Source: a virus
Lineage: Duplodnaviria > Caudoviricetes
Virus record (IMG/VR): IMGVR_UViG_3300044213_000090
Span: 519 to 64,518 of that record
Length of the DNA: 64,000 bases
Reading direction: 5' to 3' (one strand)
Shown here: piece after piece, positions 8,269 to 47,770 of the stretch
Layout of the letters: every line of letters begins with the position of its first letter
Position numbering within the stretch: position 1 is the first letter of the stretch
Translations under genes and position numbers: made by a program
The notes under the pieces: model-generated
Database searches by the model: none
The model's input: only the letters and a program-made list of their open reading frames with translations
Told to the model about the DNA's origin: nothing

Positions 8269-11200
8269 ATGCCGTATTTGAAATTGCCCACAGGGGCATT
8301 TGTTGAAGTTCCAAGTGGACTAACTGACGCCGAAGCTCTAAGCCTTGCTAAAGAACAATTCCCTGAAGGTTTTGAAGATTACGCAGCGCATAAAGAAAAG
8401 ACTGGTGGTTTCTCAGCTCTCAAGGCGGGATTAAAAGGAGGCGCTGGTTCCGCACTTGAAGGTCTTGGCAATTTAGTTGGTAGCGACGAGTTTGCCAAAT
8501 ACGGCAAAGATATTAAAGACGAAGCCGCACAGCAATACCAAGCAACAACACCGCAAGATATTGATGTTGCAAAACGTCAAGGCATTACATCTTTACTTAG
8601 TACGGGAATTAATAGATACATCACTGAACCCGTAGGCTCAGCTGTCGGTAGTGTAGTGGGGCGTTATGGTGCTCCTATTGCCGCTGGCGCGGCTGCTGGC
8701 GTTGCTGCTCCCGAAGCTGCTTTAGCGGCTCCTATTGCTTTTGCTGCAACTAACTTTCCTATTCACTTCGGTGAAGACATTACAGCCCAAAAAGCTGCTG
8801 GACAAGAACCTGATTATGGACGCGCATTAATTTCGGCTGTTGCGCAAACAGCAGTTGATTCTCTAGGCGGTGAGATTGTAGGCGGGGCTATGAAAGGCTT
8901 TGCTTTAAAAACCGCTACACAAGAAGCCCAGTTACTTGCCCCTAAAGTATTAAGTGGTGAACTAGCTGCTAAAGATGCTGCAGCGCAGATTAGTGGGAAG
9001 TTAGCTAGCGTAGTAAAAGGCACAGTAGAAGCCGCTGGTGCGGGTACATTGATGTCCACAGTCGGCACAGCCGGTCAAAGATTTGCCGCTGGTCAAGATA
9101 TTTTTAGTCCCGAAGCGTTAGATCAATATACTCAAGCTGCTAAAGAGCTGGGCTTGGTTGCTCCGTTCTTTGGTTTACTTCATGCTGGACAGCCTGCACG
9201 TGCTAAAGCATTAATTGATAATGCCGCAAAAACAGGTGAAGCACAAAGATTAGATATTGCAAAAGAGCAACAAGCAGGTAACGCACAAATTATGGCTGAG
9301 CATTATGCCAGTCCAGAAGGCCAGCTAGAATTAAAGCAAGCTCGTGAACCTATCGTTCAGGAGATGAACGACCTTAAAGAAGTATTAAAAGGTAAAGGCT
9401 TAGCTAAAAAAGAAAAGCAGGCTGGTAAAGATAGGCTTAACGAATTACAAAAGCAACTTGAAGAAATTAACAATCGAGTTGGCGTTCCTAAAGCCGAGTT
9501 GCCTGAAGGCGAAGTACCACAAACTATTCAAGGCCGCCTAGAAGCACTACGTCAAAAGCGTGCAGAAGATGCAGCCGCACAAGAAGAAGTGTTAAGAAAA
9601 GCTCGTGCTGGTTTAGAGCTTGGGGAAGAAGTAAAAGCGCAACCGATTAAAAGCGGTTTGCAAAAAACAGGTACGTACCTAAACGAAAAAGGCGAAGAAG
9701 TACCTCAATATTCTCAAACAGCCCCAAGCACATTAACTGTTAGCGAAAAAGAAGCGCAAGCTAGAGAACTCCAATCTCACCGTGAGATGTTGGCTAATTC
9801 CATACCGCGTATGGAGGACATGGTTGACAATATTCAGAAGCAGTTAGACGGCGCTATTGCTAAAGGCGATACCGAAACCTACCGCAAACTAGTGGGCGAC
9901 AGAGCTAAGATTGTAGATGCGCTAGATGCCGCTAAGAAACAACAAGAAGCGCTGCCTAAACTGCCTGAAGAAGAGCGTGCTGCGTTAGAGAAAGAAGTTA
10001 AGACATTAACTAAAGAAGCTTCTAAATATACCGGCCCAGCTTTTGACCAAGAAAAAGTAGATAAGATTGTTACTAAGTTAGAAGCCGCTAAGAAACGTCT
10101 TGGTGAATTACCTGAACCAGAGCAAGAGAATTTATTTGCGCCTAAACAGCAAGGCTTGGCATTTGAGCCAACTAAAGAAGAGAAAGCACACGCAGAACGT
10201 CAAAAAGATTTGGAAGAAGCGTTTAGCAAAACCGATGAGCATTTGCTTGATAAAATCTTTGATGCAATCGGAGCTAGCGGCGAAGATAGGGGTTTACCGG
10301 AGACACCCACAGAACAGGCGCTTAGTCCACGTAATCGTATCGCACACGCACAGGAAAAACAGCGCCTTGCGCATGACAACTTAGCGGATGCTGTTGAAGA
10401 TATTAGGGCAAACCCTGAAAGTGCTATGCGGCACACACTTGTGCCATCTGCCAAAGCTAGATACATTAAATCTGCGATTGCTGAAGTAGGGGCCATTCGT
10501 GAAGAGAACAAACAAAAGCCGCTAACTAATGATGAGAAGTTAAAGCTTGCCTACGATGTACAAGACACGCTTAATAAAGTAGTTGAAAATAAGAATGCGT
10601 CTGTATTAAACCGCATTAGCGGTACAGAGCCTACCCAGCTTGAAAAACAATTGGGACAAATTAAAGCTAAGTATCAGCAAGGTGAAAGCAGATTCCGTCC
10701 TGTTGAAGACTTTTATTTACGCCAAGAGCGTGACGCTACGTTGGCTCTTAAAGAAGAGATGGCTAAGAAAAAGCCAAACCTTGAAAGAGTTAAAGCATTG
10801 CGTCGTGAAGTTGAAGCGGGTCGCAAAGAAAACGCTAGACTTGAAGCTGAACGTGCTAAGCAAGAAGCTGTTGATATGGAGCGTTATGCTCCGTCTGGCG
10901 TAAACCCAGACCAATATAGTTTGTTTGGCGCTAAAGAATTAGAGCCTATTGCTACAGTGCGTGCTACCCCAGCCAACTTTATGAAGTTTGTTGGCATCCA
11001 AAGAACTAAGTTACAACACGCTATTAAACAAGCTAAAGCTGCAATCGAAGCAGCTAAAGCAAAAGGCACATCCGCCGCCGAAGATAGAGCACGTGTAGAA
11101 GCTATTGCAGCTAAAAAAGGCCCGTTGATTGAGCGCCTTACTGACCGCTTAGAAGAATCGTTTGCTGCCAATAAAGAAAATGCTATGGATCGCAGCGCTA

Positions 11201-14200
11201 AGTTGCGTGAAATGTTTAGCAAGCCTTTAGAGTACAAGTTGTTATTCGATATTGCGCAGACTAAAGAAAAGATTGCTCAATATAAAGAGATTGCCGCCGG
11301 TGAAAAAGGCAAGTTTAAAGCAGGCTACCTTAAGTATGTTAAGGAGTTAGAGAAGACTATCGAGCAGGCTGAGAAGTATCTTGATGATATTCGTGCTCGT
11401 GAGACTGAGTATTTTACTATTGAAGGTGAGAACAATAAGCGTTCAGTGCAGATGACTCGTAAGATTCTCAAAGAAGCACTAGATGAGAACAAGGTAACTG
11501 AAGAACAAGCCGCTCCAGTACGTAGAGAGATTGATCGTATTGAGGCCGAGAACCAAGCTGAGTTAGAGCAACGTATTAAAGAGCGCCGTATTGCTGAGCA
11601 AGAAGCGCTTGAAAAACAAGCTGCACAACCTACGATACGTCAAGAAGTTATTGGCAGTAATGTGGTATTGCCCGGTACTAAAGATGTAGTTTTACAAAAG
11701 AAAATTGTAGAAAAGAAAAAGCCATTAACAGCAGAAGAAAAACAAGCTAAGTTATACAAAGAAAGCGCTGAAGGCGCTAAAGATATGCAGGCTATCCGCA
11801 AACAGCTTGGACTAGATAAGCCTAACCGCAAAGATGTGATTGCTGATTCTAAAGCATATATTAAGGCATTGGAAGAGCGTATTGAAGTTAACGACAAGAA
11901 GCGTCGTGTAACTAATCCTAAGAGCGAAGCTCGTGCCAAGTTTGAAGGTGTTGTTGATGCGCTTACTAAAGAGCTAGAAAATGAGAAAAAAAACCTAGCT
12001 GAGCTACAAAAATTAGCAAAAGCCGAACGTGCCTTGGCGGTTGCTGGAAATGAACCCGGCCGCAAACAAAGACTTAAGCCATTAAAGCGTGGTCAAGTTG
12101 ATCTAGCTAAAAAATTTGAAGAAGGCGTAAAAGCCGAAAAAAGTTACGAGCCTGATTACAGTCCGCGTGTAAGTAGAGACGAGAATGGAAGCTATATTTT
12201 TAGGCAAACTGAAGGCGATATAGGCAGTTCGCTATTTAGGCGTGATGAAGGTAAAGTCGGAGCTGTTGATATAGCTGAAACCGCTAAACGTGCTGAGCAG
12301 TTTAAATCTGCTTTGCCTGAAGGAGTTAAGTTTGAGTACGCCGATACTTCTGAGCAGTTGCCTGATTACGTAAAAGCGCAACTTTCTGAAAGTTCCCTAA
12401 ACAATATGAAAGGCGCTTTGTTGCCTGATGGCACTATCGTAGTTGTCGGCGATAAGCACGCTAACATGTTGGACTTTGAAAAGACATTAGCACACGAAGC
12501 TATTGGTCACTATGGTGTAGAGCGTATCCTTGGCAAAGAAGGCCTTGTAAATCTTATTACTAAGATTGATGCGCAAAAAGGTGGATTCCATAAACTAGCT
12601 AGCGAGATGGGCGTTTTAGACGCCGTGCTTAAAGAAATTCGCGAAGAAAAAGAAGAGCGTGGTACGTTAACTCCACAGCAAGAAAAAATGATTGCTGTCC
12701 GAGAAATGATTGCCCGCTTTGAAGAAAAGCGTTTAGACGACACAGGGTTTATCAAAAAAGCTGAGCGCTTTATAAAAGAACTTATCGGTACGATGCGTCA
12801 GTGGATACGCAAGAGCGGGTTATCTAAGCTTGAAAATATCACAGATACAGACATGCTCTATTTATTAAAGCAGTCTAGAGAAGCGCTAAAAGGCAATCGT
12901 GAATTTACGTATACTCATATCGGCGGTGAAACAGCATTCCGTAAAGCTAAGTTTGAGAATGAGAATGATCCGCTTGCCCAGTTATCAGAGAAGTTAGTAG
13001 CTAAGCCAAAAGGAATTAAAGATACGTTGAAAGGCAACCTAGCTGCTTTCAATACGCAGTTCGTTGACCGCTTAGCTCCGTTAAAAGAGATTTGGCGTCG
13101 TATGGGCGAAACAGGCCTAGCTTCGCAGATGATTTATAACTTATTGGCGCACGGTCAACGCACAAACATTACTAGTGAAACCGTTACAAATGGCGCTAGA
13201 GTGTTTTATAAAGACCCCGTAACCGGTGAAGTTACTATTCGTGCTTCGGGTGGTCCGGGTATGAAGCAGGTATTGCAAGAGTTACTGCAATCTACTAAGG
13301 GTAATGCCCAAGCATTAAATGAAATGTTTACCGCATATGCTGCGGCTAAACGTGCTGAACTTGTTGGATATAAGAAGTTGGTAGCTGACGGAGAAATTAG
13401 CGCTAATATTACTCCTGCTATGTTGGAAGCGGCCAAAAAGTCTGGCGATGCTGACCCAGCTTTTGTTAAAGCATTTAAGACATACCAAGAATATAACAAC
13501 GGCTTGATTGATAATTTAGCGCAGTCAGGCTACATATCGGAAGCTAAAGCCAAAGAGTTTAAGAACAGAAACTATATTCCATACTATCGTTCACGTGGCG
13601 GAAATGTGGATTTGATTATTGGTTCTGAAAGCCCTATCCGTATTGGTACATTAAAAGACCAGCCTTACTTACATGAGTTAGTTGGCGGCGATCAAAAAAT
13701 TCAAGACTTCTTCAAGTCTGCTGTTGCTAACACCAATATGATTACCGAAATGGCTTTGCGTAATAACGCAACTGCCAGCGTAGCTAGAACACTACAAGAC
13801 TTGGGTATTGCCGAGATTCGTAAAGGCGAAGGCGCTATGGGGCCTGATGTTATCCGCTTTAAGTCTAACGGCAAAGATTATCACGCTATTATTGATACAT
13901 CTAAGAACGCAGAGTTTAGCGATATCAGTCCGCAACTTTTAGTCAAGGGTATGGAAGGTATTCCAACCCAGCTTCCGGGTATCGTGCGTTTAATGGGAAT
14001 GCCGGCAAATTGGCTACGTAAGGGCGTTACACGCAATCCTTTCTATGCCTACAAGCAGTTAGTTCGTGATCCAATGTCCGCTTGGTTAACAACAGGGGGC
14101 GAGTTCACACCGATTCTGTCATCACTTAAGGAAGTTAGTAACGCTTTTGGTAAAGGCTCCGATACGGCTAGACATTTACAAGAGTCAGGTATTTTGGGTG

Positions 14201-15525
14201 GGGAAGTTTACACAGGACGTGCTGAAGATTTAAACCAAATTGTTACTCGCTTGCAATCAGGCAAAGCAAACGTAACCGGCGCTTTGGCATTTATGGATAG
14301 GGTTGCTACTGAAGCTGACGCTTCTACCCGTTCTGTTCTTTATGATAGCTTCCGCAAACAGGGTTTGACGGATATGGAAGCGCAGATTGCCACAATGGAG
14401 TCCATGAACTTTAATACTCGTGGCGCTTCTCCGTCTATGCACTGGGTTAATACAATGGTGCCGTTCTTTAATTCGGCTATCCAAGGCTACAACGTAATGT
14501 ACAAAGCGTTTACCGGCAAGATGCCGTACGCTAAGAAACTAGACTTGCAAAACAAGTTAATCAAACGTGGTGCCATGATTGCGGGTATGTCGATTCTGTA
14601 CGCGATTGCACAACAAGATAACGAAGCCTATAAGAACGCTACACCTGAACAGAAGTATTTGAATTGGTTTGTACCCGGAATGGGTAAAGATGGGAAAGAG
14701 GCGTTTAGACTGCCTATCCCGTTTGAAGCAGGCTATATTTTCAAAGCGCTGCCCGAAGCCGTAGTAAACATGGCTTACAGTGATGAGAAAGCTAGAGAAG
14801 GTCTTGATGCGATTAGAACAGTATTGAACGCCACTAATCCTTTGGGTATTCCTACCGCTGTTAAGGCCCCTATTGAACTGGCTATGAACCGGTCTATCTA
14901 TACAGGTCGTGATATTGAAAGCCAGCGTATTCAACAGTTAGAACCCGGCAAGCGTGCCTACGATACAACCAGCGAGCCAGCTAAGATGCTTGGTGATATG
15001 TTAGGGATTTCCCCTATTACACTGGACTACTTGGCTAAGAGCTATCTCGGCGGTATTTTTACAACCGTTGCTTCCGTAGTTAATCCTATGCTTGCGTCTA
15101 ACGAAAACGTGAAACCTGACGGCACTATGTCTGATTTGCCTGTGTTTGGTCAGATGTTCCAGCCTGAAGACGCTGGCGGCATTTCTATGCGTGCCTACGA
15201 CGTACTACAACAAGCTGCGCAACGCTCAGCTACTTACAAAGATTTGGTTGCAAGAGGCGCCACAAAAGAGGCTGAATCGTACGGTAAAGAGTACGCTCAA
15301 GAGATCGGTGTTGGCAATATGGCGGCTAGCATGAAGGCTGATTTGGACCAGTTATCGGGCGAAATTCGCAAGGTTAAAGAACAGCGCTTACCCCCCGGCA
15401 TGAGTCCACAGCAGTTTGCGGTTCAAAAACGTCAACAGCTAACTAAGTTGCAAGAACAGCGTGCCAAGCTAGCACAAGACTTCCTCAAGCAAGTCGCCGA
15501 AACAAAACGCCAAGCTTCCCGTTAA
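8269..15525 (+). CDS. giant polyvalent ejected protein (coiled coil, HExxH metallopeptidase-like domain, LPD38-like C-terminus)
   Basis: 2418 aa; LAHEAIGHYG; C-terminal PFFNSAIQG, FRLPIPFE, PIELAMNRSIYTGRDI. Confidence 0.7.
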   Translation: MPYLKLPTGAFVEVPSGLTDAEALSLAKEQFPEGFEDYAAHKEKTGGFSALKAGLKGGAGSALEGLGNLVGSDEFAKYGKDIKDEAAQQYQATTPQDIDVAKRQGITSLLSTGINRYITEPVGSAVGSVVGRYGAPIAAGAAAGVAAPEAALAAPIAFAATNFPIHFGEDITAQKAAGQEPDYGRALISAVAQTAVDSLGGEIVGGAMKGFALKTATQEAQLLAPKVLSGELAAKDAAAQISGKLASVVKGTVEAAGAGTLMSTVGTAGQRFAAGQDIFSPEALDQYTQAAKELGLVAPFFGLLHAGQPARAKALIDNAAKTGEAQRLDIAKEQQAGNAQIMAEHYASPEGQLELKQAREPIVQEMNDLKEVLKGKGLAKKEKQAGKDRLNELQKQLEEINNRVGVPKAELPEGEVPQTIQGRLEALRQKRAEDAAAQEEVLRKARAGLELGEEVKAQPIKSGLQKTGTYLNEKGEEVPQYSQTAPSTLTVSEKEAQARELQSHREMLANSIPRMEDMVDNIQKQLDGAIAKGDTETYRKLVGDRAKIVDALDAAKKQQEALPKLPEEERAALEKEVKTLTKEASKYTGPAFDQEKVDKIVTKLEAAKKRLGELPEPEQENLFAPKQQGLAFEPTKEEKAHAERQKDLEEAFSKTDEHLLDKIFDAIGASGEDRGLPETPTEQALSPRNRIAHAQEKQRLAHDNLADAVEDIRANPESAMRHTLVPSAKARYIKSAIAEVGAIREENKQKPLTNDEKLKLAYDVQDTLNKVVENKNASVLNRISGTEPTQLEKQLGQIKAKYQQGESRFRPVEDFYLRQERDATLALKEEMAKKKPNLERVKALRREVEAGRKENARLEAERAKQEAVDMERYAPSGVNPDQYSLFGAKELEPIATVRATPANFMKFVGIQRTKLQHAIKQAKAAIEAAKAKGTSAAEDRARVEAIAAKKGPLIERLTDRLEESFAANKENAMDRSAKLREMFSKPLEYKLLFDIAQTKEKIAQYKEIAAGEKGKFKAGYLKYVKELEKTIEQAEKYLDDIRARETEYFTIEGENNKRSVQMTRKILKEALDENKVTEEQAAPVRREIDRIEAENQAELEQRIKERRIAEQEALEKQAAQPTIRQEVIGSNVVLPGTKDVVLQKKIVEKKKPLTAEEKQAKLYKESAEGAKDMQAIRKQLGLDKPNRKDVIADSKAYIKALEERIEVNDKKRRVTNPKSEARAKFEGVVDALTKELENEKKNLAELQKLAKAERALAVAGNEPGRKQRLKPLKRGQVDLAKKFEEGVKAEKSYEPDYSPRVSRDENGSYIFRQTEGDIGSSLFRRDEGKVGAVDIAETAKRAEQFKSALPEGVKFEYADTSEQLPDYVKAQLSESSLNNMKGALLPDGTIVVVGDKHANMLDFEKTLAHEAIGHYGVERILGKEGLVNLITKIDAQKGGFHKLASEMGVLDAVLKEIREEKEERGTLTPQQEKMIAVREMIARFEEKRLDDTGFIKKAERFIKELIGTMRQWIRKSGLSKLENITDTDMLYLLKQSREALKGNREFTYTHIGGETAFRKAKFENENDPLAQLSEKLVAKPKGIKDTLKGNLAAFNTQFVDRLAPLKEIWRRMGETGLASQMIYNLLAHGQRTNITSETVTNGARVFYKDPVTGEVTIRASGGPGMKQVLQELLQSTKGNAQALNEMFTAYAAAKRAELVGYKKLVADGEISANITPAMLEAAKKSGDADPAFVKAFKTYQEYNNGLIDNLAQSGYISEAKAKEFKNRNYIPYYRSRGGNVDLIIGSESPIRIGTLKDQPYLHELVGGDQKIQDFFKSAVANTNMITEMALRNNATASVARTLQDLGIAEIRKGEGAMGPDVIRFKSNGKDYHAIIDTSKNAEFSDISPQLLVKGMEGIPTQLPGIVRLMGMPANWLRKGVTRNPFYAYKQLVRDPMSAWLTTGGEFTPILSSLKEVSNAFGKGSDTARHLQESGILGGEVYTGRAEDLNQIVTRLQSGKANVTGALAFMDRVATEADASTRSVLYDSFRKQGLTDMEAQIATMESMNFNTRGASPSMHWVNTMVPFFNSAIQGYNVMYKAFTGKMPYAKKLDLQNKLIKRGAMIAGMSILYAIAQQDNEAYKNATPEQKYLNWFVPGMGKDGKEAFRLPIPFEAGYIFKALPEAVVNMAYSDEKAREGLDAIRTVLNATNPLGIPTAVKAPIELAMNRSIYTGRDIESQRIQQLEPGKRAYDTTSEPAKMLGDMLGISPITLDYLAKSYLGGIFTTVASVVNPMLASNENVKPDGTMSDLPVFGQMFQPEDAGGISMRAYDVLQQAAQRSATYKDLVARGATKEAESYGKEYAQEIGVGNMAASMKADLDQLSGEIRKVKEQRLPPGMSPQQFAVQKRQQLTKLQEQRAKLAQDFLKQVAETKRQASR

Positions 15526-19896: not shown

Positions 19897-20307
19897 TTAT
19901 TTAGTTGGTTTACGTACTGTTACTGCAAAATCTTGTAGAGAGTTTAACCCTGCTGGAACTAACCCCGGGTTTTCCTCTAGAAACAAGGCCATGTTCTTCT
20001 GCGATATACGTCGCTCGAACAAATCTAAAGCATCGTTGTCTACGGCAAACTGCTTGAAGGAATCCCAGTCGTCTGTGTAGTAACGAGTCTTTTGCGACAG
20101 GATGATAGTACCTTCATCAGTCTTCACCGAATTAGTACCGAGCGCTACCATCTGATCTTTCATAGCGTTCTTTAATTCATCTTGTTGCGCTTTGAGCTTT
20201 TCTACTTCGCTTTCGTACTCACGAGTTAGCTCTTGAACTCTTGAGTATATCTTTCGGTAAATCCTCGCCAGTTTGTCTAGCGGTACTACTTCTATTTCAT
20301 CAGACAT
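19897..20307 (-). CDS. conserved phage coiled-coil protein
   Basis: Start moved to MSDEIEVV after SD GAAAGGAG; SVKTDEGT..DWDSF motif. Confidence 0.65.
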   Translation of the reverse strand: MSDEIEVVPLDKLARIYRKIYSRVQELTREYESEVEKLKAQQDELKNAMKDQMVALGTNSVKTDEGTIILSQKTRYYTDDWDSFKQFAVDNDALDLFERRISQKNMALFLEENPGLVPAGLNSLQDFAVTVRKPTK

Positions 20308-20388
20308 TTGATTTCTCCTTTCAACGTCTATGTCAAATACTTTACAACAGTAGAGGCACGAATACAACCCAAACTAGGGTTTTTATTT

Positions 20389-22936: not shown

Positions 22937-22963
22937 TTTCTTTTCCTTTCGTTGTTGTCGATT

Positions 22964-33747: not shown

Positions 33748-33765
33748 GTGATTCTCCTTTGTTGT

Positions 33766-34968: not shown

Positions 34969-34989
34969 ATGTTTTCCTTTCGTTGTTGA

Positions 34990-39774: not shown

Positions 39775-40264
39775 CTTGGTTCTCCTTTAGTTTTGGTCGT
39801 GGGAATATGGCTTTCCTCTTTGCTTTGTAGCAATAAGGTATTGAATCGTATAGTTTTATTAGTTCTTCCTTTTCTTTTGGGTTTACCCAATCTACCCATG
39901 TTCTTTTCTCCCTGTCTGTGTTGATTGGTGTTGCCTTGCGTTCTAGTTTGTGTTTGGTAAGCGTGATGCGGGTATCTAGTAGGGCATCGAGGTATTGGCG
40001 GTAGAAGTCGGCAGTCTGAGGGTTTGCCTTTGCGTGATAGACGATGTTTGCCCTGACCACGTTGATCTCCTTAGTTAGCGGTCGTATCATTTCGAGCCAC
40101 CTCTTATACCTGATCTTGTTCTCGACTCGGGTTTGGTTTATCTGTTTCTTGCGTAGTGCTACTTGTTCTTTGATTTGATCTACTGTGTAGTCAGGTAAGT
40201 TTCGTTTCATCAATAGGTTGTGTAGTTGATTACGTGATAGCTTGGTGTATGTTGAGTGTCGCAT
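39767..40264 (-). CDS. basic hypothetical protein
   Basis: SD GAAAGGA; WVDWV motif. Confidence 0.65.
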   Translation of the reverse strand: MRHSTYTKLSRNQLHNLLMKRNLPDYTVDQIKEQVALRKKQINQTRVENKIRYKRWLEMIRPLTKEINVVRANIVYHAKANPQTADFYRQYLDALLDTRITLTKHKLERKATPINTDREKRTWVDWVNPKEKEELIKLYDSIPYCYKAKRKAIFPRPKLKENQDD

Positions 40265-40299
40265 TGTTGTCCTTTCGTGGAGGTTTTCTCCACTTTGTC

Positions 40300-40600
40300 C
40301 TACTTGTTTGTGATTTTGTCCACTTGATACCTCGGTTTAATTAAACTCTCTGTATCTGTCGGACGACCGCTAAGCCTTATAGTATTTGAGTTTGCCATGG
40401 TTGTGTCCCGATGTCCATTAAAATTTGGGAAAATATGAAAGCCAAAGGAAGAACCAAGTTCTGAAGATGTCCACTTATATAAGCCTATATATATAAATAT
40501 CTTTATCTTTAATTATATATATACATTGTGGACAGAAGTGGACAGGACTCATATAGCATAAGGCTTAGCGGTCGACCATTGCGGTTCCACCACTATAAAA
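40300..40600. other. putative replication origin / non-coding control region
   Basis: AT-rich TATATA core (40477-40524) flanked by inverted TGTCCAC motifs and a perfect 17-bp inverted repeat (40364-40380 / 40558-40574). Confidence 0.5.
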
Positions 40601-40619
40601 TAAGGTGATTTTGTCGGAC

Positions 40620-40639
40620 TACTGTATATAACACCAGTA
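40620..40639. promoter_or_regulatory. LexA (SOS) box-like site
   Basis: TACTGTATATAACACCAGTA matches taCTG-N10-CAGta. Confidence 0.6.
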
Positions 40640-40652
40640 GCCCCCTCATCTA

Positions 40653-40895
40653 TCAAGACCTCGCTTCCTCCCATTGTGTTTTATGGTTCATAGCAAGCTG
40701 ATACGTGGTCATCATGAGCCATTCGCCACCTAGTTGATAGCTAGCCCTCATCTCATTCCATGCGTGCTTAGCGGTGTTGTATGACAGGAATGGTTGGGGT
40801 TGTTTCTTGGTGTTGCGCTTGAACTCAATGATTACCCCATCACGCTTGCATACTACATACCAGTTGTTAGGGTTACGTTGTGCTTTGTTTTTCAT
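40653..40895 (-). CDS. hypothetical early protein
   Basis: Start moved to MKNKAQ after SD AAAGGAG. Confidence 0.6.
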   Translation of the reverse strand: MKNKAQRNPNNWYVVCKRDGVIIEFKRNTKKQPQPFLSYNTAKHAWNEMRASYQLGGEWLMMTTYQLAMNHKTQWEEARS

Positions 40896-40971
40896 GTTGA
40901 TTCTCCTTTGGTTTGACATGATATGAAACTGCGTAGAAGCCTCGCACTCCCACGCTTTTCCTGATAACACC

Positions 40972-41385
40972 TTAAATCTTTGCGAGGAATTGTTTGCGCT
41001 GTGTTGCTGTGAGAGCTTTGAATTGCTTGAGTAGTTGCTCTACTTTGTTTGGCTTAGCCTTAGTAGCTTTCTTCGTGGAGGTTTTCTCCACTTGGCTTGG
41101 CATATAGTATTTGAGCATGGCTCTCGCTTGCTCGCTTGCATCACTACCACCATTCTGCTTAGCCTCAAAGCCTAGCGAGCCTGCATAGTTGCCTTTGGTA
41201 ATTTCGATTGTGGGAACTCGTTTCTTAATGCTAATCAGGCGTGCTATGTTGCTACGCACCTCTAACTGTTGTGCAATCTTCATGGCGTTGAACACAGGTG
41301 CGAACTTCTGCATGGCATCACCGAGATTAAAGCCTGACTCAATGTGTTGCTCGACCGCGTTGATGTAGTTAGTTACTTGTTTCAT
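40972..41385 (-). CDS. first early gene, hypothetical
   Basis: Start moved to MKQVTNY after GAAAGGT; C-terminal LTATQRKQFL. Confidence 0.65.
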   Translation of the reverse strand: MKQVTNYINAVEQHIESGFNLGDAMQKFAPVFNAMKIAQQLEVRSNIARLISIKKRVPTIEITKGNYAGSLGFEAKQNGGSDASEQARAMLKYYMPSQVEKTSTKKATKAKPNKVEQLLKQFKALTATQRKQFLAKI

Positions 41386-41439
41386 GATATTACCTTTCGT
41401 TGTGTATCGGCTTGGCACTATGCCTTACTCGATAACTCT

Positions 41440-41470
41440 ATTATACCAAATGGACTACTATATCTAGTAT
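41440..41470 (-). promoter_or_regulatory. early leftward extended -10 promoter with overlapping NrdR-box-like site
   Basis: TG-G-TATAAT (41448-41440); CTACTATATCTAGTAT at 41455-41470. Confidence 0.55.
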
Positions 41471-41824
41471 GGATTTGGCTTATTCTGACCCCACCCTACC
41501 CCCACCAAGCCATATTTGGCTGACCATGCCCACGGTGCCCATACACTATTTGTCTGGCGCAAACTAAAAAATGTCAAAATTTTGTAAAATTTTCTATAAA
41601 ATCAATCACTTCCATGTCAAATATTTGACCAAAAATAGGACATCACCTGCTTATTAAAGGACTCATTAATAAGGCCTTAACCTACTTAAAGACTCTTTAA
41701 TAAGGCAATAAAAACGCACATAAACCAAACAACATGTTAAAAATGTCAACAAAACGGTAAATAGACCCAAAAGCCGTCAATAAAAACGCAAATAAAAAGG
41801 TTCCAAAACGGAACCTAAAAAATA

Positions 41825-41853
41825 TTGCAGTGCAACAAAATGTAGCGTATACT
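41825..41853 (+). promoter_or_regulatory. sigma70 promoter with TGCAGTGCAACA (PhaR-box-like) over the -35
   Basis: TTGCAG, 17 nt, TATACT; palindrome TTGCA-G-TGCAA. Confidence 0.5.
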
Positions 41854-41914
41854 TTACAAAAACCCGGAATTGTAAAGTTTTGGGATCATCAATGTAAACT
41901 TAAAAGGAAACGCT

Positions 41915-42043
41915 ATGTACGATTTTTATAAACCGCTAGAACTAAACAAAACTTACCAACAGGTTGAGGGCTGGGTAAAAACCGCCTATGACTTCTGGTT
42001 AGATGTTGCAATCGACACCATCAAGATGATCAAAACCAAGTAA
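41915..42043 (+). CDS. small amphipathic protein (42 aa, MYDFYKPLEL...)
   Basis: Read manually; SD AAAAGGA; own promoter upstream. Confidence 0.55.
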   Translation: MYDFYKPLELNKTYQQVEGWVKTAYDFWLDVAIDTIKMIKTK

Positions 42044-42047
42044 CCAT

Positions 42048-42135
42048 AAAAAAAAAAACCCCCGGGCGTTTTAAGTCCGGGGGCTAACCTCACACCGACG
42101 CCACAACGAAAGGAGAAGTAAAAACGCCGGTAAGT
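42048..42135 (-). ncRNA. candidate small regulatory RNA with anti-SD loop and intrinsic terminator
   Basis: Minus-strand stem 42123-42131/42094-42102 needs G-U pairs; loop UUUACUUCUCCUUUCGUUGU; GC hairpin followed by 11 U. Confidence 0.5.
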
Positions 42136-42168
42136 GAAAGTATACAGAAAAAATTAAAAAACAAAACC

Positions 42169-42197
42169 TAGCAAAATCAAAAAAAGTAGCATATACT
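42169..42197 (+). promoter_or_regulatory. promoter of terminase/late operon
   Basis: TAGCAA, 17 nt, TATACT. Confidence 0.45.
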
Positions 42198-42250
42198 ACG
42201 CAAAATCGTGGGCCCATCCACGCAACCAAAAGGGATTAAAACTTATCACA

Positions 42251-42874
42251 ATGCTACTAGACCATCTAGTTTCAGCAAAAGCGGCAGACTACGCTCCGGA
42301 AACACTACCGGACGAGACTCTCTTCGTCCCCATTAAAGACGCCAGCGTAAAAGAAACCATCGACGCCCAAGTAAACACAGCGGATTGGCTAAAAACCATA
42401 ACCGACGATGACGAAGAATTATTGGATAGGGCTCAGGAACAAAGAGTTGGCGAAGCATTTGGCGCGTTAATAACAAACAACCCCCAAGCCAAGGAAAAGC
42501 TGCTCGAACTCGAGCTCCCCGAAGAAGTAAAGTCAGCCGTATCCATGGTGACAGCCTATCAGTGGAAGTTCGTAGAGCAAGCGCAAGAGCTGCGCAGTAT
42601 GAGCGTAGCTAAAATCGTAAAAGAAACCGACCATCCGGATGCAAGAATAAGACTTAAAGCATTGGAACTATTAGGAAAAGTGACAGAGGTCGCCCTGTTT
42701 ACAGACAGGGTAGAAGTTAAAAAGACTGAGATGAGCGACGAGGAGCTTGAAGCCCAGATCAAGAAAAAGCTAGAAAGATACATGGGCGTGGTGGATGTAG
42801 TTGAGGCGGAAGCCAAGCCAGTAGAAGACGATGAAGACGTTGGAATCGTAAAAGAAGTTAAGCCTAAAGACTAA
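42251..42874 (+). CDS. terminase small subunit (putative)
   Basis: RLKALELLGK..LFT motif; directly upstream of the large terminase. Confidence 0.7.
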   Translation: MLLDHLVSAKAADYAPETLPDETLFVPIKDASVKETIDAQVNTADWLKTITDDDEELLDRAQEQRVGEAFGALITNNPQAKEKLLELELPEEVKSAVSMVTAYQWKFVEQAQELRSMSVAKIVKETDHPDARIRLKALELLGKVTEVALFTDRVEVKKTEMSDEELEAQIKKKLERYMGVVDVVEAEAKPVEDDEDVGIVKEVKPKD

Positions 42875-42884
42875 AACAAAACGG

Positions 42885-44405
42885 ATGAATCTCGACTTCC
42901 TAACCCCCGAAGAAGCGATGGCTGCACGCCTAGCGCTAAAGGATATGACAACCGCTGAGAAGGAAGCGTACTTGGCGTTGTTAGATGAGAAGGAAAGACG
43001 GCACGAATTAAAGCTAGCGCAACAAAACCCCATCTCATTTGCTAAATACGTCTACCCCGGATTCAAAGTAGGACCGCACCATAAAAAGCTCGCCAAGATA
43101 TTTGAGGATGTGATCGCAGGTAAGAAAAAGCGTGTAATCATAAATATTGCACCACGTATGGGAAAGTCTGAGTTTTCTAGCTATCTGTTTCCTGCATACT
43201 TTCTAGGTAAATACCCTAATAAAAAAATCATTATGGCTACGCATACGGCGGGTTTGTCTGAGGATTTTGGTAGAAGAGTCAGGAATTTAATTGACAGTGA
43301 AGAATACCACGAAGTGTTTCCGGGAACGGTGGTTGCCGACGATCAAAAAGCCGCAGGTAAATGGAGCACTGGTGCTGGCGGGCAGTATTACGCTGTTGGT
43401 GTTGGGGGAGCCTTGGCAGGACGAGGCGCTGACTTGTTTGTTATTGACGACCCTCATTCTGAACAAGATATAAAAGCGAACTCTAGGGCTACGTTTGATA
43501 ATGCGTGGTCTTGGTTTCAGACTGGTCCGTTGCAGCGTTTGATGCCGGGTGGTGCAATTATTGTCATTATGACAAGGTGGAGTCTTGTTGATTTAACAGG
43601 GCGGTTGGTGAACTTCACTATGCAGAACCCCGAAGCAGAACCATGGGAAGTGGTAGAGCTACCAGCGATCCTCCCATCAGGCAAATCATTGTGGCCAGAG
43701 CAATGGCCGTTAGAACAACTAGAAGCTAAAAAACTTCAGATGGACCCGCGGTACTGGAACGCTCAGTACATGCAAAACCCCACAGGGGATACAAGCGCAT
43801 TAATAAAAAGGTCGGACTGGAGAATCTGGGAAGCAGAAAGTCCCCCGGAAGTAAAGTACGTAATACAGTCTTGGGATACGGCGTTTGAAACAAAGACAAC
43901 ATCTGACTATAGCGCCTGCACAACTTGGGGTGTTTGGTATAACGAGGAAGAGGGCAATGCCCCGCAGTTAATTTTGTTAGATGCGTTCAAAGATCGGATG
44001 ACATTCCCAGAACTCAAAGCCACAGCGCTAAAACACTACAAAGAGTGGGAGCCAGACGCCTTCATAGTGGAGAAAAAAGCATCGGGAGCGCCGCTAATAC
44101 AAGAACTTAGAAGAATGGGGATACCTGTGGACGAGTTCACCCCCAGCAGAGGAAACGACAAAATTGCTAGGGTTAATTCGATATCAGACCTTTTTGCTTC
44201 AGGGATTGTTTGGGCTCCAGATAGGCGGTGGGCCAAGGACGTGATAGAAGAAGTGGCTGCGTTCCCAGTTGGCGAGCATGATGACTTTGTGGATACGGTA
44301 TCTCAGGCGTTAATCCGATACAGAAACGGCGGGTTTATTAGCTTAGATACTGATGAGAAAGATGATTTGACGTACAAGTACCGCCGTCGAGCGGCGTATT
44401 ACTAA
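42885..44405 (+). CDS. terL: terminase large subunit
   Basis: APRMGKS, GRGADLFVIDDPH, MTRW, SWDTA, IVEKKASG, HDDFVD. Confidence 0.95.
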   Translation: MNLDFLTPEEAMAARLALKDMTTAEKEAYLALLDEKERRHELKLAQQNPISFAKYVYPGFKVGPHHKKLAKIFEDVIAGKKKRVIINIAPRMGKSEFSSYLFPAYFLGKYPNKKIIMATHTAGLSEDFGRRVRNLIDSEEYHEVFPGTVVADDQKAAGKWSTGAGGQYYAVGVGGALAGRGADLFVIDDPHSEQDIKANSRATFDNAWSWFQTGPLQRLMPGGAIIVIMTRWSLVDLTGRLVNFTMQNPEAEPWEVVELPAILPSGKSLWPEQWPLEQLEAKKLQMDPRYWNAQYMQNPTGDTSALIKRSDWRIWEAESPPEVKYVIQSWDTAFETKTTSDYSACTTWGVWYNEEEGNAPQLILLDAFKDRMTFPELKATALKHYKEWEPDAFIVEKKASGAPLIQELRRMGIPVDEFTPSRGNDKIARVNSISDLFASGIVWAPDRRWAKDVIEEVAAFPVGEHDDFVDTVSQALIRYRNGGFISLDTDEKDDLTYKYRRRAAYY

Positions 44406-44413
44406 AGGAGAAG

Positions 44414-44713
44414 ATGATGTATATGTTAAGCACATTAGATGTTTTGTATGGGGAAGTACAGCGGGCTAAACGCATAGAAGCGTACTGTGAAGAAGAGCCA
44501 AAAATGCAGATTCGTTGGAAAAACAGTTCTAGAGAAGGTATGGGACGCGGCGATTGGGAGAAACGGTTTGCTAAAGAGGCACTAAGCGCCTACCCAGACA
44601 TTAAAGATTATGTAGCGGCTGTTGAAGCTAAAAACATAATGCTGGAAGAAACGGTGCGTGAACTGCGGGTAAAAATACTAGAGCTAGAAGAAGGTAAAAC
44701 CGATGCTAAATAA
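44414..44713 (+). CDS. hypothetical coiled-coil protein
   Basis: SD AAAGGAG. Confidence 0.55.
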   Translation: MMYMLSTLDVLYGEVQRAKRIEAYCEEEPKMQIRWKNSSREGMGRGDWEKRFAKEALSAYPDIKDYVAAVEAKNIMLEETVRELRVKILELEEGKTDAK

Positions 44714-45254
44714 CTTTTTTTGGGTGTATCCGGGTGTAATTTCGGGTGTTTTATGCGATTACATGGTCAAATCTGCGCCATGGAAAGACAAATACAGCGC
44801 AGAACTATCAAAGGATAATAAAAATTTATTTGTGGATGACGACATTCGCAAAACAGAGGTCACATTTACAAACCCCTACACACCGTTAGGCTGCATGCTG
44901 CAGACCTATACCAACTTAGCTAACAAAGAAGCGGGTTGGAATTTTGATATTACGGATTTTGAGCAAATTCAAATAGGAAAATATGAAGACGGCGGCCATT
45001 ATGATTGGCATATTGATAGTTTTACTCCCGATGCGGCTAATAAACAGCGTAAACTATCGGCAGTAGCGTTCTTAAGTGACCCAGACACCTATGAAGGCGG
45101 CGTTTTTGAATTTAAAATAGCAGCATTACCGGAAAAAATGCCGAAAGGTACGCTTATTGTTTTTCCTTCGGTATTGGAGCACAGAGTTACTGCCGTAGAT
45201 GACGGCATACGATACACCGCAGCATGCTGGGCTTCAGGTCCAGCTTTTAGATAG
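44703..45254 (+). CDS. 2OG-Fe(II) oxygenase (prolyl-4-hydroxylase-like)
   Basis: YDWHID, RKLS, YEGG, FPS..HRV, G.R. Confidence 0.9.
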   Translation: MLNNFFWVYPGVISGVLCDYMVKSAPWKDKYSAELSKDNKNLFVDDDIRKTEVTFTNPYTPLGCMLQTYTNLANKEAGWNFDITDFEQIQIGKYEDGGHYDWHIDSFTPDAANKQRKLSAVAFLSDPDTYEGGVFEFKIAALPEKMPKGTLIVFPSVLEHRVTAVDDGIRYTAACWASGPAFR

Positions 45255-45262
45255 GATAGATT

Positions 45263-47770
45263 ATGTCAGTAGATAAGGGTTTATACCAAGCACCTAAAGG
45301 TTTAGAAGAATTGACGCAGAATCAAGCGCCAGATATTGAGATTGAGATTGAAGACCCAGAAGCAATGCACATTAGTGCTGATGGTTTTGAACTTGATATT
45401 GAAAAGATGGACGAAGTCGACGGCAGTGAAGAGTTTAATGAAAACCTAGTCGAGCACATGGACGATGGCGACATTGAGTCTTTAGCTTCTGAATTAGCAG
45501 GCGATATTGATAACGACATTGCAGCCCGTAAAGACTGGGAGCAAATGTATAAAGATGGTATTACTCTGCTCGGCTTAAAATTTGAAGAGCGCGTTGAACC
45601 ATGGGACGGCGCTTGCGGTGTATTCCACCCGATGATTACTGAGGCGGTTGTACGTTTTCAAGCTGAAGCAATTATGGAGACTTTCCCAGCAGCAGGTCCA
45701 GTACGCACCCAGATTATCGGTAAAGAAACCCGTGAGAAAGTAGAAGCAGCGCAACGTGTTGAGCAAGATATGAACTATCAGCTCACAGAGAAAATGCCTG
45801 AGTTTAGAAACGAGCATGAAAGAATGCTTTGGAATTTGCCATCTGCGGGTTCTGCGTTTAAGAAAGTCTACTACGACCCAAGTATCGGACGTCAAATCTC
45901 AATCTTTATTCCTGCTGAAGACATCATTATTCCTTACGGCGCTAGCGAGATCGCATCATGCCATCGTGTTACACACCGCATGCGCAAGACAAAACAAGAA
46001 CTGATCAAGCTACAAAAAGCTGGGTTCTATAGAGACTTTGATCTTGGTGAACCACAAAAATTCCGTACAGAAATTCAAGAAAAGAAAGATAAAGAAACCG
46101 GCTTTAGCGCATCATACGATGATCGCTTTGAGCTGTATGAGGCTCACGTAGATTTAGATTTACCGGGCTTTGAAGATAAAGACGACAGCGGCGAGATGAC
46201 TGGTATTGCTTTGCCATACGTCGTAACTATGGTTAGGGGCACAAATGAGATTCTTGCAATTCGTAGAAACTGGAAAGAGGAAGATCCGCTTCGCCTTAAA
46301 CGCCAGCACTTCGTACATTATCAATATATCCCCGGATATGGTGCTTATGGCTTTGGTTTGTTTCACCTTATTGGAGGATTTGCTAAGTCCGCTACTTCCA
46401 TATTGCGTCAATTGGTTGATGCCGGTACTCTTTCCAATTTACCGGGTGGATTAAAGTCTAGAGGGTTGCGCATTAAAGGTGACGATACTCCAATCGCACC
46501 GGGTGAATTCCGTGACGTTGATGTTGGTAGCGGCACAATTCGTGATAACATTCTTCCATTACCATACAAAGAGCCATCTGCAGTTTTAGCCGGCTTAATG
46601 GATAAGATCATTGAAGAAGGACGTCGCTTTGCGGCTACTTCGGATATGCAGGTCTCTGATATGAGCGCTAATGCGCCTGTTGGAACAACGCTTGCAATTT
46701 TGGAAAGAACCTTGAAGGTGATGTCTGCCGTTCAAGCTCGAGTACATTACGCCTTAAGACAAGAACTCAAGCTGCTTGCTGGCATTATTAGAGACTACAC
46801 TGATGATGACTACAACTACGAACCAGAAAGCGGAGACTTCCAAGTCAAAAAATCTGACTACAGTCACGTGGATGTGTTGCCTGTATCCGATCCTAATGCG
46901 GCAACCCTATCGCAACGAGTGGTCCAGTACCAAGCTGTTATCCAGTTGGCGCAAAGTGCCCCCCAGATTTATAACCTACCCGAGCTCCACAGGCAGATGC
47001 TTGACGTTCTTGGAATTAAAAACGCCGACAAACTGGTGCCTTTGGAGGATGACCAAAAACCACGCGACCCTGTAAGCGAGAACATGAATGCGCTAAAGGG
47101 CAAACCGCTCAAGGCGTTTATCTACCAAGACCACGAAGCACACATCAAAGTGCATCAGATGGCGATGCAGGATCCACTAGTCCAGCAGATGATTGGCCAG
47201 AATCCACAAGCTCAAGCCATTCAGGGAGCGATGATGGCGCATATTGCCGAGCATTTAGGGTTTGCATACCGTCAAAAGATCGAGCAGGCTATGGGCGCAG
47301 CATTACCAGCCCCAGACGCAGAAATGCCAGAAGACATGGAGATTCAGATTTCTCAGCTTGTCGCACAAGCTGCTCCACAAGTATTGGCCCAGTCCCAAGC
47401 AGTCGTTGCGCAGCAACAAGCACAACAAAACGCACAAGACCCAGTCATGCAAGCGCAGCTTATTGACCAGCAAGTCAAGCAAGGCGAACTCGAGCGTAAG
47501 AAACAGAAAGACGCCCAAGACGCCATCTTCAAACAAAGAGAGCTCATGCTCGAGGAACAGAAGATTAAGCAAGACGCCCTTGGCAAGACAGCAAACATCA
47601 TGCTCCAAGCTGAAGATAAACGTGTTGGCAGACATAAAGCCACAGCCGATGTTGCGATGCAAGCCGCACAATTGCAGCAAAACGATAAGCAACATAAGGC
47701 CGATACAGCCAGCGACTTATTTAAGCATCAATCAACCCTACTTAACCAACAAGGAGGCACTGAAGAGTGA
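45263..47770 (+). CDS. portal protein
   Basis: 835 aa after terminase; FKKVYYD, LRQLVDAGTLSNLPGG; Gln-rich C-terminal barrel as in P22-like portals. Confidence 0.85.
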   Translation: MSVDKGLYQAPKGLEELTQNQAPDIEIEIEDPEAMHISADGFELDIEKMDEVDGSEEFNENLVEHMDDGDIESLASELAGDIDNDIAARKDWEQMYKDGITLLGLKFEERVEPWDGACGVFHPMITEAVVRFQAEAIMETFPAAGPVRTQIIGKETREKVEAAQRVEQDMNYQLTEKMPEFRNEHERMLWNLPSAGSAFKKVYYDPSIGRQISIFIPAEDIIIPYGASEIASCHRVTHRMRKTKQELIKLQKAGFYRDFDLGEPQKFRTEIQEKKDKETGFSASYDDRFELYEAHVDLDLPGFEDKDDSGEMTGIALPYVVTMVRGTNEILAIRRNWKEEDPLRLKRQHFVHYQYIPGYGAYGFGLFHLIGGFAKSATSILRQLVDAGTLSNLPGGLKSRGLRIKGDDTPIAPGEFRDVDVGSGTIRDNILPLPYKEPSAVLAGLMDKIIEEGRRFAATSDMQVSDMSANAPVGTTLAILERTLKVMSAVQARVHYALRQELKLLAGIIRDYTDDDYNYEPESGDFQVKKSDYSHVDVLPVSDPNAATLSQRVVQYQAVIQLAQSAPQIYNLPELHRQMLDVLGIKNADKLVPLEDDQKPRDPVSENMNALKGKPLKAFIYQDHEAHIKVHQMAMQDPLVQQMIGQNPQAQAIQGAMMAHIAEHLGFAYRQKIEQAMGAALPAPDAEMPEDMEIQISQLVAQAAPQVLAQSQAVVAQQQAQQNAQDPVMQAQLIDQQVKQGELERKKQKDAQDAIFKQRELMLEEQKIKQDALGKTANIMLQAEDKRVGRHKATADVAMQAAQLQQNDKQHKADTASDLFKHQSTLLNQQGGTEE

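Follow-up and report, generated by a model that had tools for sequence, protein, structure and literature searches.

A conserved small RNA gene between the replication and structural blocks of an uncultured freshwater phage, and its match to the phage's own gene leaders

Does the short segment between positions 42048 and 42144 of an uncultured freshwater phage genome encode a regulatory RNA, and if so, on which messages would that RNA act? The segment lies in a stretch of 64,000 nucleotides (nt), hereafter the window, which comprises bases 519–64518 of the 64,518-base IMG/VR virus record IMGVR_UViG_3300044213_000090 (completeness estimate 97%). From the letters of the window alone, it had been proposed to be the gene of a minus-strand small RNA (sRNA) whose hairpin loop is complementary to the Shine-Dalgarno (SD) regions of early-gene leaders and which shuts off early translation at the early-late switch (the original prediction). 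Judged by comparison with related loci, the segment very probably holds a genuine RNA gene of a new family, and the pattern of complementarity suggests, with less certainty, that its RNA acts in trans on the phage's own leftward genes.

Genomic setting and anatomy of the sRNA unit

Genes in the window run rightward from position 1 to ~15,500, leftward from 15,663 to 41,418, and rightward again from 41,915. The leftward block encodes a family-A DNA polymerase, a DUF927 primase/helicase-type protein, an SNF2 helicase, an ATPase and a DUF2201/VWA-like protein, and is best called a replication or early-middle block. A large terminase is encoded in the rightward block starting at 42,251, the rest of which presumably consists of structural genes. 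The sRNA locus sits inside the 830-nt gap that separates the leftward and rightward blocks.

The features of the unit all lie on the minus strand. Its -10 hexamer, TATACT (42139–42144), has a TG directly on the 5′ side (42146–42145) and a T-rich upstream region, and the transcript would likely start at about 42131–42133. Hairpin 1 consists of the 5′ arm ACCGGCGUU (42123–42131), a 20-nt CU-rich loop UUUACUUCUCCUUUCGUUGU (42103–42122) that carries the anti-SD seed CUCCUUUC, and the 3′ arm GGCGUCGGU (42094–42102); both arms are supported by RNAfold and by covariation. Three of the nine pairs of this stem are G-U, which on the plus strand become A-C mismatches. A GC-rich terminator hairpin (42059–42084), supported by RNAfold and by compensatory changes, is followed by a U11 tract at the 3′ end of the sRNA (42048–42058), and a T run stands 3′ of the hairpin on the minus strand only. 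The putative -10 hexamer and the predicted Rho-independent terminator bound a short unit without an open reading frame (ORF), as would be expected of a trans-encoded sRNA gene.

For the minus strand, RNAfold returned both hairpins with an energy of -30.4 kcal/mol (z -2.45), which 3 of 200 shuffles equalled. On the plus strand, hairpin 1 was broken into six interrupted pairs (-25.2 kcal/mol), and no ATG, GTG or TTG occurs within ~20 nt downstream of the SD-like motif that forms the plus-strand face of the loop. The elements named in the original prediction (TATACT, a 9-bp stem with three G-U pairs, the loop, the GC hairpin and 11 U) were all correct in position and sequence. Its statements that the stem pairs properly on one strand only, that the plus-strand SD-like motif has no ATG nearby and that the -35 match is weak were borne out as well.

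Conservation and covariation among related phages

At least 590 terminase relatives are present in IMG/VR, and the best 80 loci were used here. By blastn, the sRNA element was found at 85–90% identity in L002–L006. The loop is identical in the terminase-linked loci L002, L003, L004 and L006, and the stems and flanks vary. Stem substitutions in the close relatives are paired (U-G to G-C, C-G to U-A, G-C to A-U), and the identical place is occupied by a -10 hexamer reading TATACT or TACAAT (alignment A1).

A scan of IMG/VR for an exact pattern, 18 nt of the loop, returned 18 stretches, a set in which loop invariance is given by construction; 16 of them carry the stem and the terminator. In alignment A2, made up of 12 distinct copies, pairing of helix 1 is complete (100%), and three of its nine pairs have changed on both sides, as have 3/8 pairs of the terminator helix. 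The covariation score was 0.260, against 0.100 ± 0.019 in shuffles, and was reached by none of 500 shuffles. Every covariation measure exceeded the shuffles except that of further pair types, and sliding the partner strand abolished the pairing. When divergent relatives were included (alignment A4, 21 rows), both-side changes were seen in 8/9 pairs of helix 1, with 96.7% of its cells paired, and compensatory changes in 6/8 pairs of the terminator helix. The whole structure was 95.4% paired in A4, falling to at most 58% when the partner was slid by 1–3 columns; this alignment is model-fitted and leans to the model's structure, and includes one off-target and one misaligned row. Covariation in related phages, which had been named as a check on the RNA, is accordingly present in both the narrow and the wider set.

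A covariance model built from the copies gave 70 matches at E ≤ 10 in 79 loci. Nearly all of these are syntenic, and in most of the loci a minus-strand match lies 650–900 nt upstream of the terminase. The hairpin type itself is found in about 20 of the 80 terminase-linked loci (L002–L007, L009, L013, L015, L016, L017, L019, L020, L022, L024, L025, L026, L027, L029, L030 and L032). Its stems are strongly divergent, as in GCGUGCGGC, ACCGUAGC, GCCGCAGU, GUCAACGC and AACACUGUC. The loop retains CCUUCGUU, and both this and the element CCTTCGTT are invariant in all 15 aligned hairpin-type sequences. A conserved secondary structure that holds a conserved single-stranded seed is again a feature of trans-encoded sRNAs. 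A TAnnnT hexamer (TATACT, TATAAT, TACAAT or TATGAT) stands 4–7 nt before the stem in each of the 12 hairpin-type variants read. Several relatives carry two or three CU-rich modules, the extra ones lying between hairpin 1 and the terminator, such as AUCCUCGUUUG, ACAUCCUCCUUGG and AUCUCCUUUGUUGUG in L007, L019, L020, L026, L027 and L030.

Taken together, a covarying stem, a fixed loop, a positioned -10 hexamer and a retained terminator argue for a real RNA gene, and we are highly confident, on this comparative evidence, that selection acts on a small structured RNA gene at this locus. The alternative, that the segment has no regulatory function and is an intrinsic terminator beside a decayed, inverted copy of a gene leader, can draw on the modest z-score of the fold taken alone. 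It can also draw on the two stretches of the pattern scan that lack the stem, in L092 (2781–2798) and L093 (5886–5903). These are ordinary gene leaders, CACAACGAAAGGAGAAGTAA(A)TG, identical over at least 18 nt to the complement of the window sRNA loop. The occurrence of such leaders in other contigs suggests that the sRNA seed likely arose as an inverted copy or duplication of a leader. Loss of function after such an origin is nevertheless hard to reconcile with compensatory substitutions in 3/9 helix-1 pairs (8/9 in the wider set), an invariant loop beside variable flanks, a -10 hexamer conserved in position, and the duplication of the CU-rich module within relatives. We therefore consider it extremely improbable.

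The same alignments bear on the strand. G-U or U-G pairs account for 42 of ~183 helix-1 cells in A4 (counted from the table), all of which would be mismatches on the plus strand. These cells, together with the -10 hexamers and the location of the T run, identify the minus strand as the transcribed one; promoter, stem covariation, strand-specific G-U pairs and conserved terminator all agree with the minus-strand RNA gene that had been predicted. Were the plus strand functional instead, it could act as a leader-like decoy, whose A(N)GGA/SD loop titrates ribosomes or a protein of the CsrA/RegA kind, or as the start of a tiny ORF. The plus strand does carry a consensus early leader, distant relatives show an SD followed by an ATG at normal spacing (in L058 with a frame of 30 codons), and the lineage-matched changes described below would be expected equally from a decoy. 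Against this, the motif in the window has no start codon within ~20 nt, the tiny frames opened in relatives share neither length nor sequence, the G-U pairs turn into mismatches that leave six interrupted pairs, and the T run and conserved -10 hexamers belong to the minus strand. A functional plus strand is thus very unlikely.

Complementarity between the loop and leftward gene leaders

If the minus-strand RNA is real, its loop should indicate what it pairs with. Gene starts were taken from a crude gene-calling script of our own, and duplexes were computed for the loop against positions -30 to +6. The sequence ACAACGAAAGGA occurs with at most one mismatch in four copies in the window, where shuffles give an expectation of 0.31 and none of 100 shuffles reached four. 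Three of the copies are minus-strand and directly precede leftward genes (22955–22944, 34986–34975 and 41403–41392), and the fourth, 42103–42114 on the plus strand, is the plus-strand face of the loop.

The candidate targets are minus-strand leaders distributed across the leftward block. The first leftward gene (137 amino acids (aa), start 41385) has the leader CACAACGAAAGG (41393–41404), which is complementary to the loop over 12 nt (-18.6 kcal/mol). A gene for a 400-aa DUF2201/VWA-like protein (start 34968) is preceded by ACAACGAAAGGA (34975–34986; -18.8 kcal/mol), and a 290-aa gene (start 33747) by ACAAC-AAAGGAGAA (33752–33765; -17.5 kcal/mol). The lowest duplex energy in this group, -21.0 kcal/mol, belongs to a 108-aa gene (start 22936) with a second ACAACGAAAGGA leader (22944–22955). 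A 136-aa gene (start 20307) has the leader GAAAGGAGAA (20313–20322; -18.3 kcal/mol), and a weaker candidate is the leader ACGAAAGGA (40270–40278; -12.8 kcal/mol) of a 165-aa gene (start 40264). These candidate targets lie 0.7–22 kb from the sRNA gene. All the leader matches listed in the original prediction are present.

Across all called leaders, the mean duplex energy with the loop was -12.7 kcal/mol for leftward genes (n = 50) and -8.7 kcal/mol for rightward genes (n = 47; Mann-Whitney p = 9e-6). In a further control, the CUCCU core was kept fixed and its two flanks were shuffled 500 times, which cancels SD strength and base composition. Energies of -17 kcal/mol or lower were reached by 13 of 50 leftward leaders, against 3.5 ± 2.2 for the flank shuffles, 0.4% of which scored as high; the loop matches therefore exceed what the SD core provides. 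Among rightward leaders only 1/42 reached this value, with no excess over flank shuffles (54% as high). By eye, the leftward contexts read aCAAC(g/a)AAAGGAGaa, with A/C-rich aCAACgAAAGGAGaa and a consensus of about ACAACGAAAGGAGAA, and the rightward contexts read tAAGGAG(c/t)t. The seed is thus complementary to distant messenger RNA (mRNA) leaders beyond chance, with exceptions, as is typical of a trans-encoded sRNA.

Match of each sRNA variant to the leaders of its own phage

Five further records (G001, G004, G005, G006 and G008) were compared, using the single-stranded segments of own and foreign sRNAs; a leader was scored as a match when 9 nt or more in a row were complementary to the sRNA. 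Own sRNAs matched 8/42 leftward and 1/38 rightward leaders in G000, 10/48 and 0/49 in G004, 7/38 and 1/49 in G005, 4/43 and 1/9 in G001, and 5/35 and 0/44 in G008; G006, with poor gene calls, gave 0/20 and 3/30. Foreign sRNAs found 0–5 leftward matches, though two of them are longer. The sRNA of the window type pairs with ACAACGAAAGGAG. That of G001 pairs over 11 nt with AAGGAGGATGT, which precedes two genes, of 401 aa and 290 aa; judged by their size and place in the gene order, these are likely the counterparts of the DUF2201-like and 290-aa genes of the window. That of G008 pairs with CATCAGGAGAA. Flank shuffles reached the observed counts in 9, 11 and 28 of 1000 trials for the three window-type genomes, in 14 of 1000 for the third module of G001, and in 15 of 1000 for G008. 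Each of the three sRNA variants matches the leaders of its own phage better than the other variants do.

The excess of leader matches and the lineage-matched variants together lead to a trans-acting anti-SD sRNA that would act on the phage's own early/middle mRNAs. Judged from sequence comparison, we give a probability of roughly 55% to the reading that such an RNA regulates the phage's own leftward genes. Since the loop complements the ribosome-binding sites (RBSs) of the replication block, the sRNA would probably dampen their translation.

Several observations weigh against this reading. Much of the complementarity is SD content, and leftward SDs are stronger than rightward ones (-7.7 against -6.1 kcal/mol, p = 0.004). 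The leader sets rest on crude gene-start calls, and descent from an inverted leader copy would give complementarity without function. The comparison of own with other sRNAs involves three independent variants, and the statistics ignore phylogeny. In G006, 0/20 leftward leaders match the phage's own sRNA (poor gene calls), and the hairpin loop of G001 matches 0/43 called leaders, with a single 10-nt match beside an ATG in a scan of the whole record. The first leftward leader of L004 has 6 nt of complement to its own sRNA and 11 nt to those of other lineages, and those of L029, L009 and L030 have at most 6 nt to their own. As to the RNA itself, the fold of the single sequence is modestly above shuffles (z -2.45), the -35 element is weak, and a generic scan for consensus promoters and terminators lists neither the sRNA promoter nor the sRNA terminator. 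The terminator loop, at 10–11 nt, exceeds the 3–8 nt limit of the scan.

A single conserved primary target, the first leftward gene, was considered and excluded, because the leaders of its orthologues match their own sRNAs to variable extents (12 nt in the window, 13 in L006, 10 in L003 and 7 in L002).

The RNA could also be real and chiefly directed at the host, with the CUCCUUUC loop binding strong host SD sites and thereby shutting off or re-programming host translation, and with the phage-leader match as a secondary matter. The core of the loop is indeed a generic anti-SD sequence, and the window RNA bears a weak, sub-threshold resemblance to Rfam families of CU-rich sRNAs. Passages of PMC5688073 describe CU-rich sRNAs of Burkholderia that are predicted to bind many RBSs, and one of them whose overexpression attenuates growth. 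A host-directed seed need not have flanks that fit the phage's own leftward leaders, and these flanks both fit them and shift with them in three lineages, so that a chiefly host-directed role appears unlikely.

Proposed mechanism, promoters and timing

For an sRNA that regulates the phage's own leftward genes, the following mechanism may be proposed. A host sigma70-type RNA polymerase would transcribe an RNA of ~85 nt leftward from the TATACT promoter, its end being set by the GC hairpin and U11. Hairpin 1 would present the 20-nt loop with its CUCCUUUC core, which we take to resemble the mRNA-binding tail of 16S ribosomal RNA, and the loop flanks would complement the A/C-rich surroundings of SD sequences in leftward replication-block leaders. 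The loop, or the linker modules in relatives, would pair in trans with several leftward mRNAs across their SD regions, in competition with the 30S subunit, and would lower translation and perhaps stability of these mRNAs. Leaders of the rightward structural genes, with their differing SD context, would largely be spared. That the RNA is made, that it represses, which leaders are its genuine targets and when it acts are all inferred from these patterns.

The sRNA promoter looks like an ordinary sigma70-type promoter. In L004, L005 and L006 it is near-consensus (TTTACA-17-TACAAT), and this L004-type promoter resembles the leftward promoter-like site AACTTTACAAT (41879–41869) in the early intergenic region of the window. 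A sigma70-like promoter with such likeness to an early-region site means that early or constitutive synthesis fits as well as late synthesis. The sRNA promoter is divergent from, and ~50 nt away from, a conserved plus-strand -10 element, TATACT (42191–42196), which would belong to the promoter of the rightward structural genes; L003, L002 and L007 have a counterpart (TATAAT, TACAAT or TATACT) in the corresponding position. The arrangement named in the original prediction, an sRNA divergent from the late promoter, thus agrees with a putative promoter in the window. Its claim that the targets are early genes holds in part: the leaders in question do belong to the leftward replication block, but this block is early-middle and not proven early, and the product of one of its genes (19897–20307) matches PHROG 13900, annotated as 'minor head protein'. 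Shut-off at the early-late switch is one possibility, and gradual accumulation of the RNA after early synthesis would fit equally.

Possible local role and the 42-aa gene

A local role could be envisaged as that of an antisense or insulating transcript, which would halt plus-strand read-through from the gene at 41915–42043 into the structural operon or cause it to be processed, or as interference with the divergent rightward promoter. This plus-strand ORF encodes 42 aa (MYDFYKPLELNKTYQQVEGW...), has an AAAGGA SD and a promoter-like site (TTGCAG-17-TATACT, 41826–41855), and heads toward the sRNA gene, with its end 5 nt short of the U tract. Pfam and PHROG gave no match to it; relatives with 40–71% identity occur in L026, L087, L003/L082 and L019, always just before the terminator. 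A conserved ORF with a promoter-like site that runs at the sRNA gene would suit a local role, as would the sRNA promoter at ~50 nt from the rightward -10 element. The hairpin shared by the two strands has no T run on its plus side, which makes plus-strand read-through plausible. Yet the ORF was found by tblastn in only five other sequences (L003 and L082 being one contig), against about 20/80 loci for the hairpin type. Cis-antisense action would explain neither the invariant loop on a covarying stem nor the excess matches to many distant leaders and the lineage-matched changes. A purely local role is accordingly also unlikely.

Distant relatives

In the remaining loci (type B), the same kind of terminator is found at the syntenic place, preceded by a CU-rich stretch that looks single-stranded; a CU-rich motif precedes the terminator in most of the non-hairpin-type loci among the 80. 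Upstream sequence of 1 kb or more is available for 67 loci; a minus-strand terminator was scored in 61 of them, and in all but one of the 61 (60) a CU-rich motif lies no more than 75 nt away. This synteny count is an upper bound because the script took the complement of a genuine plus-strand RBS in L017, L022, L024 and L029. The CU-rich stretch of type B often reaches CAU, as in CAUUUGCUUCUCCUUUG. Viewed on the plus strand, this corresponds to an SD followed by an ATG at normal spacing, and the tiny frames that follow vary in length and sequence (by eye). In L058 the frame has 30 codons, and the first structural gene has its true start 77 nt beyond it. A common 5′ hairpin capped by GCAA was considered and rejected: a contiguous stem of at least 5 bp around a GNRA loop was present in just 9/27, and for that reason no shared 5′ structure is claimed for type B. 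The elements of these distant relatives are probable but unproven homologues of the window sRNA.

Relation to known RNAs

A search of the whole window against Rfam returned no family at its gathering score. The closest matches all fell below it. The rdlD antitoxin (RF01813) scored 26.5 bits (gathering 50), the identity lying mainly in the terminator hairpin and U tract, and the Betaproteobacteria toxic small RNA (RF02278; gathering 50) scored 19.0 bits in the window and 22.5 in L030. Anti-hemB (Burkholderia RNA 7, RF02837; gathering 49.5) reached 17.6 bits in the window and 18.9–23.8 in L019, L022, L026 and L030. The scores of mmgR (RF00519; gathering 41) were 24.0 bits in L022 and 18.4 in L030, and those of NsiR1 (RF02399; gathering 39) were 16.3 bits and up to 21.5 in relatives. 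C4 was absent among the region's matches up to E = 5.

The window RNA resembles double-hairpin sRNAs known from bacteria in its length, its architecture and the type of its seed. The CU-rich Burkholderia representatives (RF02278; ncS03, ncS05, ncS27 and ncS62), as portrayed in passages of PMC4603805 and PMC5688073, are ~57–92 nt long with the terminator as their second hairpin, and the NmsR sRNAs of Neisseria appear in the same paper as comparable two-hairpin RNAs. Unlike RF02278, the window RNA is phage-encoded, scores below that family's threshold, has seed flanks tuned to its own leaders, and is located at the divergence of replication and structural blocks.

Among phage-encoded RNAs, OOP of lambda and sar of P22 are terminator-ended cis-antisense RNAs of ~70–80 nt that overlap a single target on the opposite strand. 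The RNA proposed for the window is likewise small, terminator-ended and pairing, but it overlaps no plus-strand gene start. A cis-antisense arrangement, with overlap of an opposite-strand RBS and start codon, was not found in the window, and the SD and ATG frames of the distant relatives are not conserved. In phage T4, the translational repressor RegA and the endoribonuclease RegB shut down early mRNAs post-transcriptionally via their ribosome-binding regions; these effectors are proteins, whereas the effector proposed for the window is an RNA. The nearest phage RNA in principle may be c4 of P1/P7, which is processed from the very transcript under its control. Its loop-exposed sequences pair at the RBS of a phage mRNA and block translation; the target is ant mRNA, and c4 controls immunity (passages of PMC12197685). 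Unlike c4, the window RNA would have a separate promoter and terminator and many candidate targets, and it shows no sign of a lysogeny module. PAK_P3 sRNA2 was dropped as an anti-RBS parallel; part of PMC4933390 reports for it an 11-nt match to tRNA T-loops. No phage sRNA directed at the RBSs of its own gene block emerged from full-text term searches of the literature, which do not prove that none has been described.

To our knowledge, very few regulatory RNAs are known from virulent phages. Phage regulatory RNAs of known mechanism come mostly from temperate coliphages and act on single genes. If the window RNA regulates the phage's own leftward genes, it would represent a compact and testable RNA-based temporal control in a phage. 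It would also provide a natural series of co-varying pairs of sRNA and leader that are directly swappable, and would indicate that structured RNA genes in uncultured phage genomes can be discovered by comparison alone. A wider reading is tentative and in our judgement somewhat doubtful: a freshwater phage clade may time its expression by an RNA mimic of the ribosome tail, with a modular sRNA of one to three CU-rich seeds that co-evolves with the RBS class of the replication block and switches that block down. The clade in question is abundant and uncultured, with a terminase ~50% identical to that of HTVC023P-type pelagiphages. Its sRNA would then be an RNA counterpart of T4 RegA/RegB, and the distant relatives would carry a rearranged device whose seed extends over the start codon (CAU).

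Named and binned relatives, and other features of the window

Megablast of 40000–46000 against GenBank phages gave zero matches. The eight sequencing runs listed as containing this sequence are recorded as freshwater or other metagenome DNA. By terminase protein (47–54% identity), the nearest named phages are 023Pt_psg01, the Pelagibacter phages HTVC027P and HTVC023P, DSL-LC04, and Planktothrix/Synechococcus phages. The covariance model returned nothing convincing in three named-phage relatives (best 9.6 bits), and no such element was seen by eye in the intergenic region of 023Pt_psg01. Terminase relatives with 56–79% identity are also present in genome bins (L120–L127), on contigs shorter than 8 kb in all but one case. 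These bins are assigned to unrelated phyla (Elusimicrobia, Phycisphaerales, Terrimicrobiaceae, Rhodocyclaceae, Burkholderiaceae, Chitinophagales, Kaiserbacteria and Patulibacter), and the sequences are probably phage contigs swept into the bins, without usable host signal. In the first rightward block, a single ORF of 2418 aa spans 8269–15525 on the plus strand.

Further signals are found in the gap around the sRNA gene. On the minus strand, TTTACA-18-TACAAT (41898–41869) is followed by a terminator-like hairpin and T run (41816–41798). The possible leftward unit so delimited (41898–41790) runs antisense to the region around the promoter-like site of the 42-aa gene, ~400 nt ahead of the first leftward gene, and might represent a further small RNA or an early promoter subject to attenuation. 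Its AACTTTACAAT sequence recurs unchanged in the sRNA promoter of the L004-type relatives. Several copies resembling TTTTGACATTTTT are located at 41440–41760 (minus strand), in the long gap before the first leftward gene, together with an extended -10 element, TGgTATAAT (41448–41440, minus strand). Both features are shared by L004 (4330–4900, minus strand), and they are likely early promoters or operator repeats. Just 3′ of the putative rightward promoter, a plus-strand hairpin, CGTGG-GCCCAT-CCACG (42207–42222), is followed by CAACC. It may form the 5′ stem-loop of the structural-gene mRNA, and it is kept in the relatives L002, L003 and L007 (alignment A1), with the compensatory change CGTGA...TCACG in L003.

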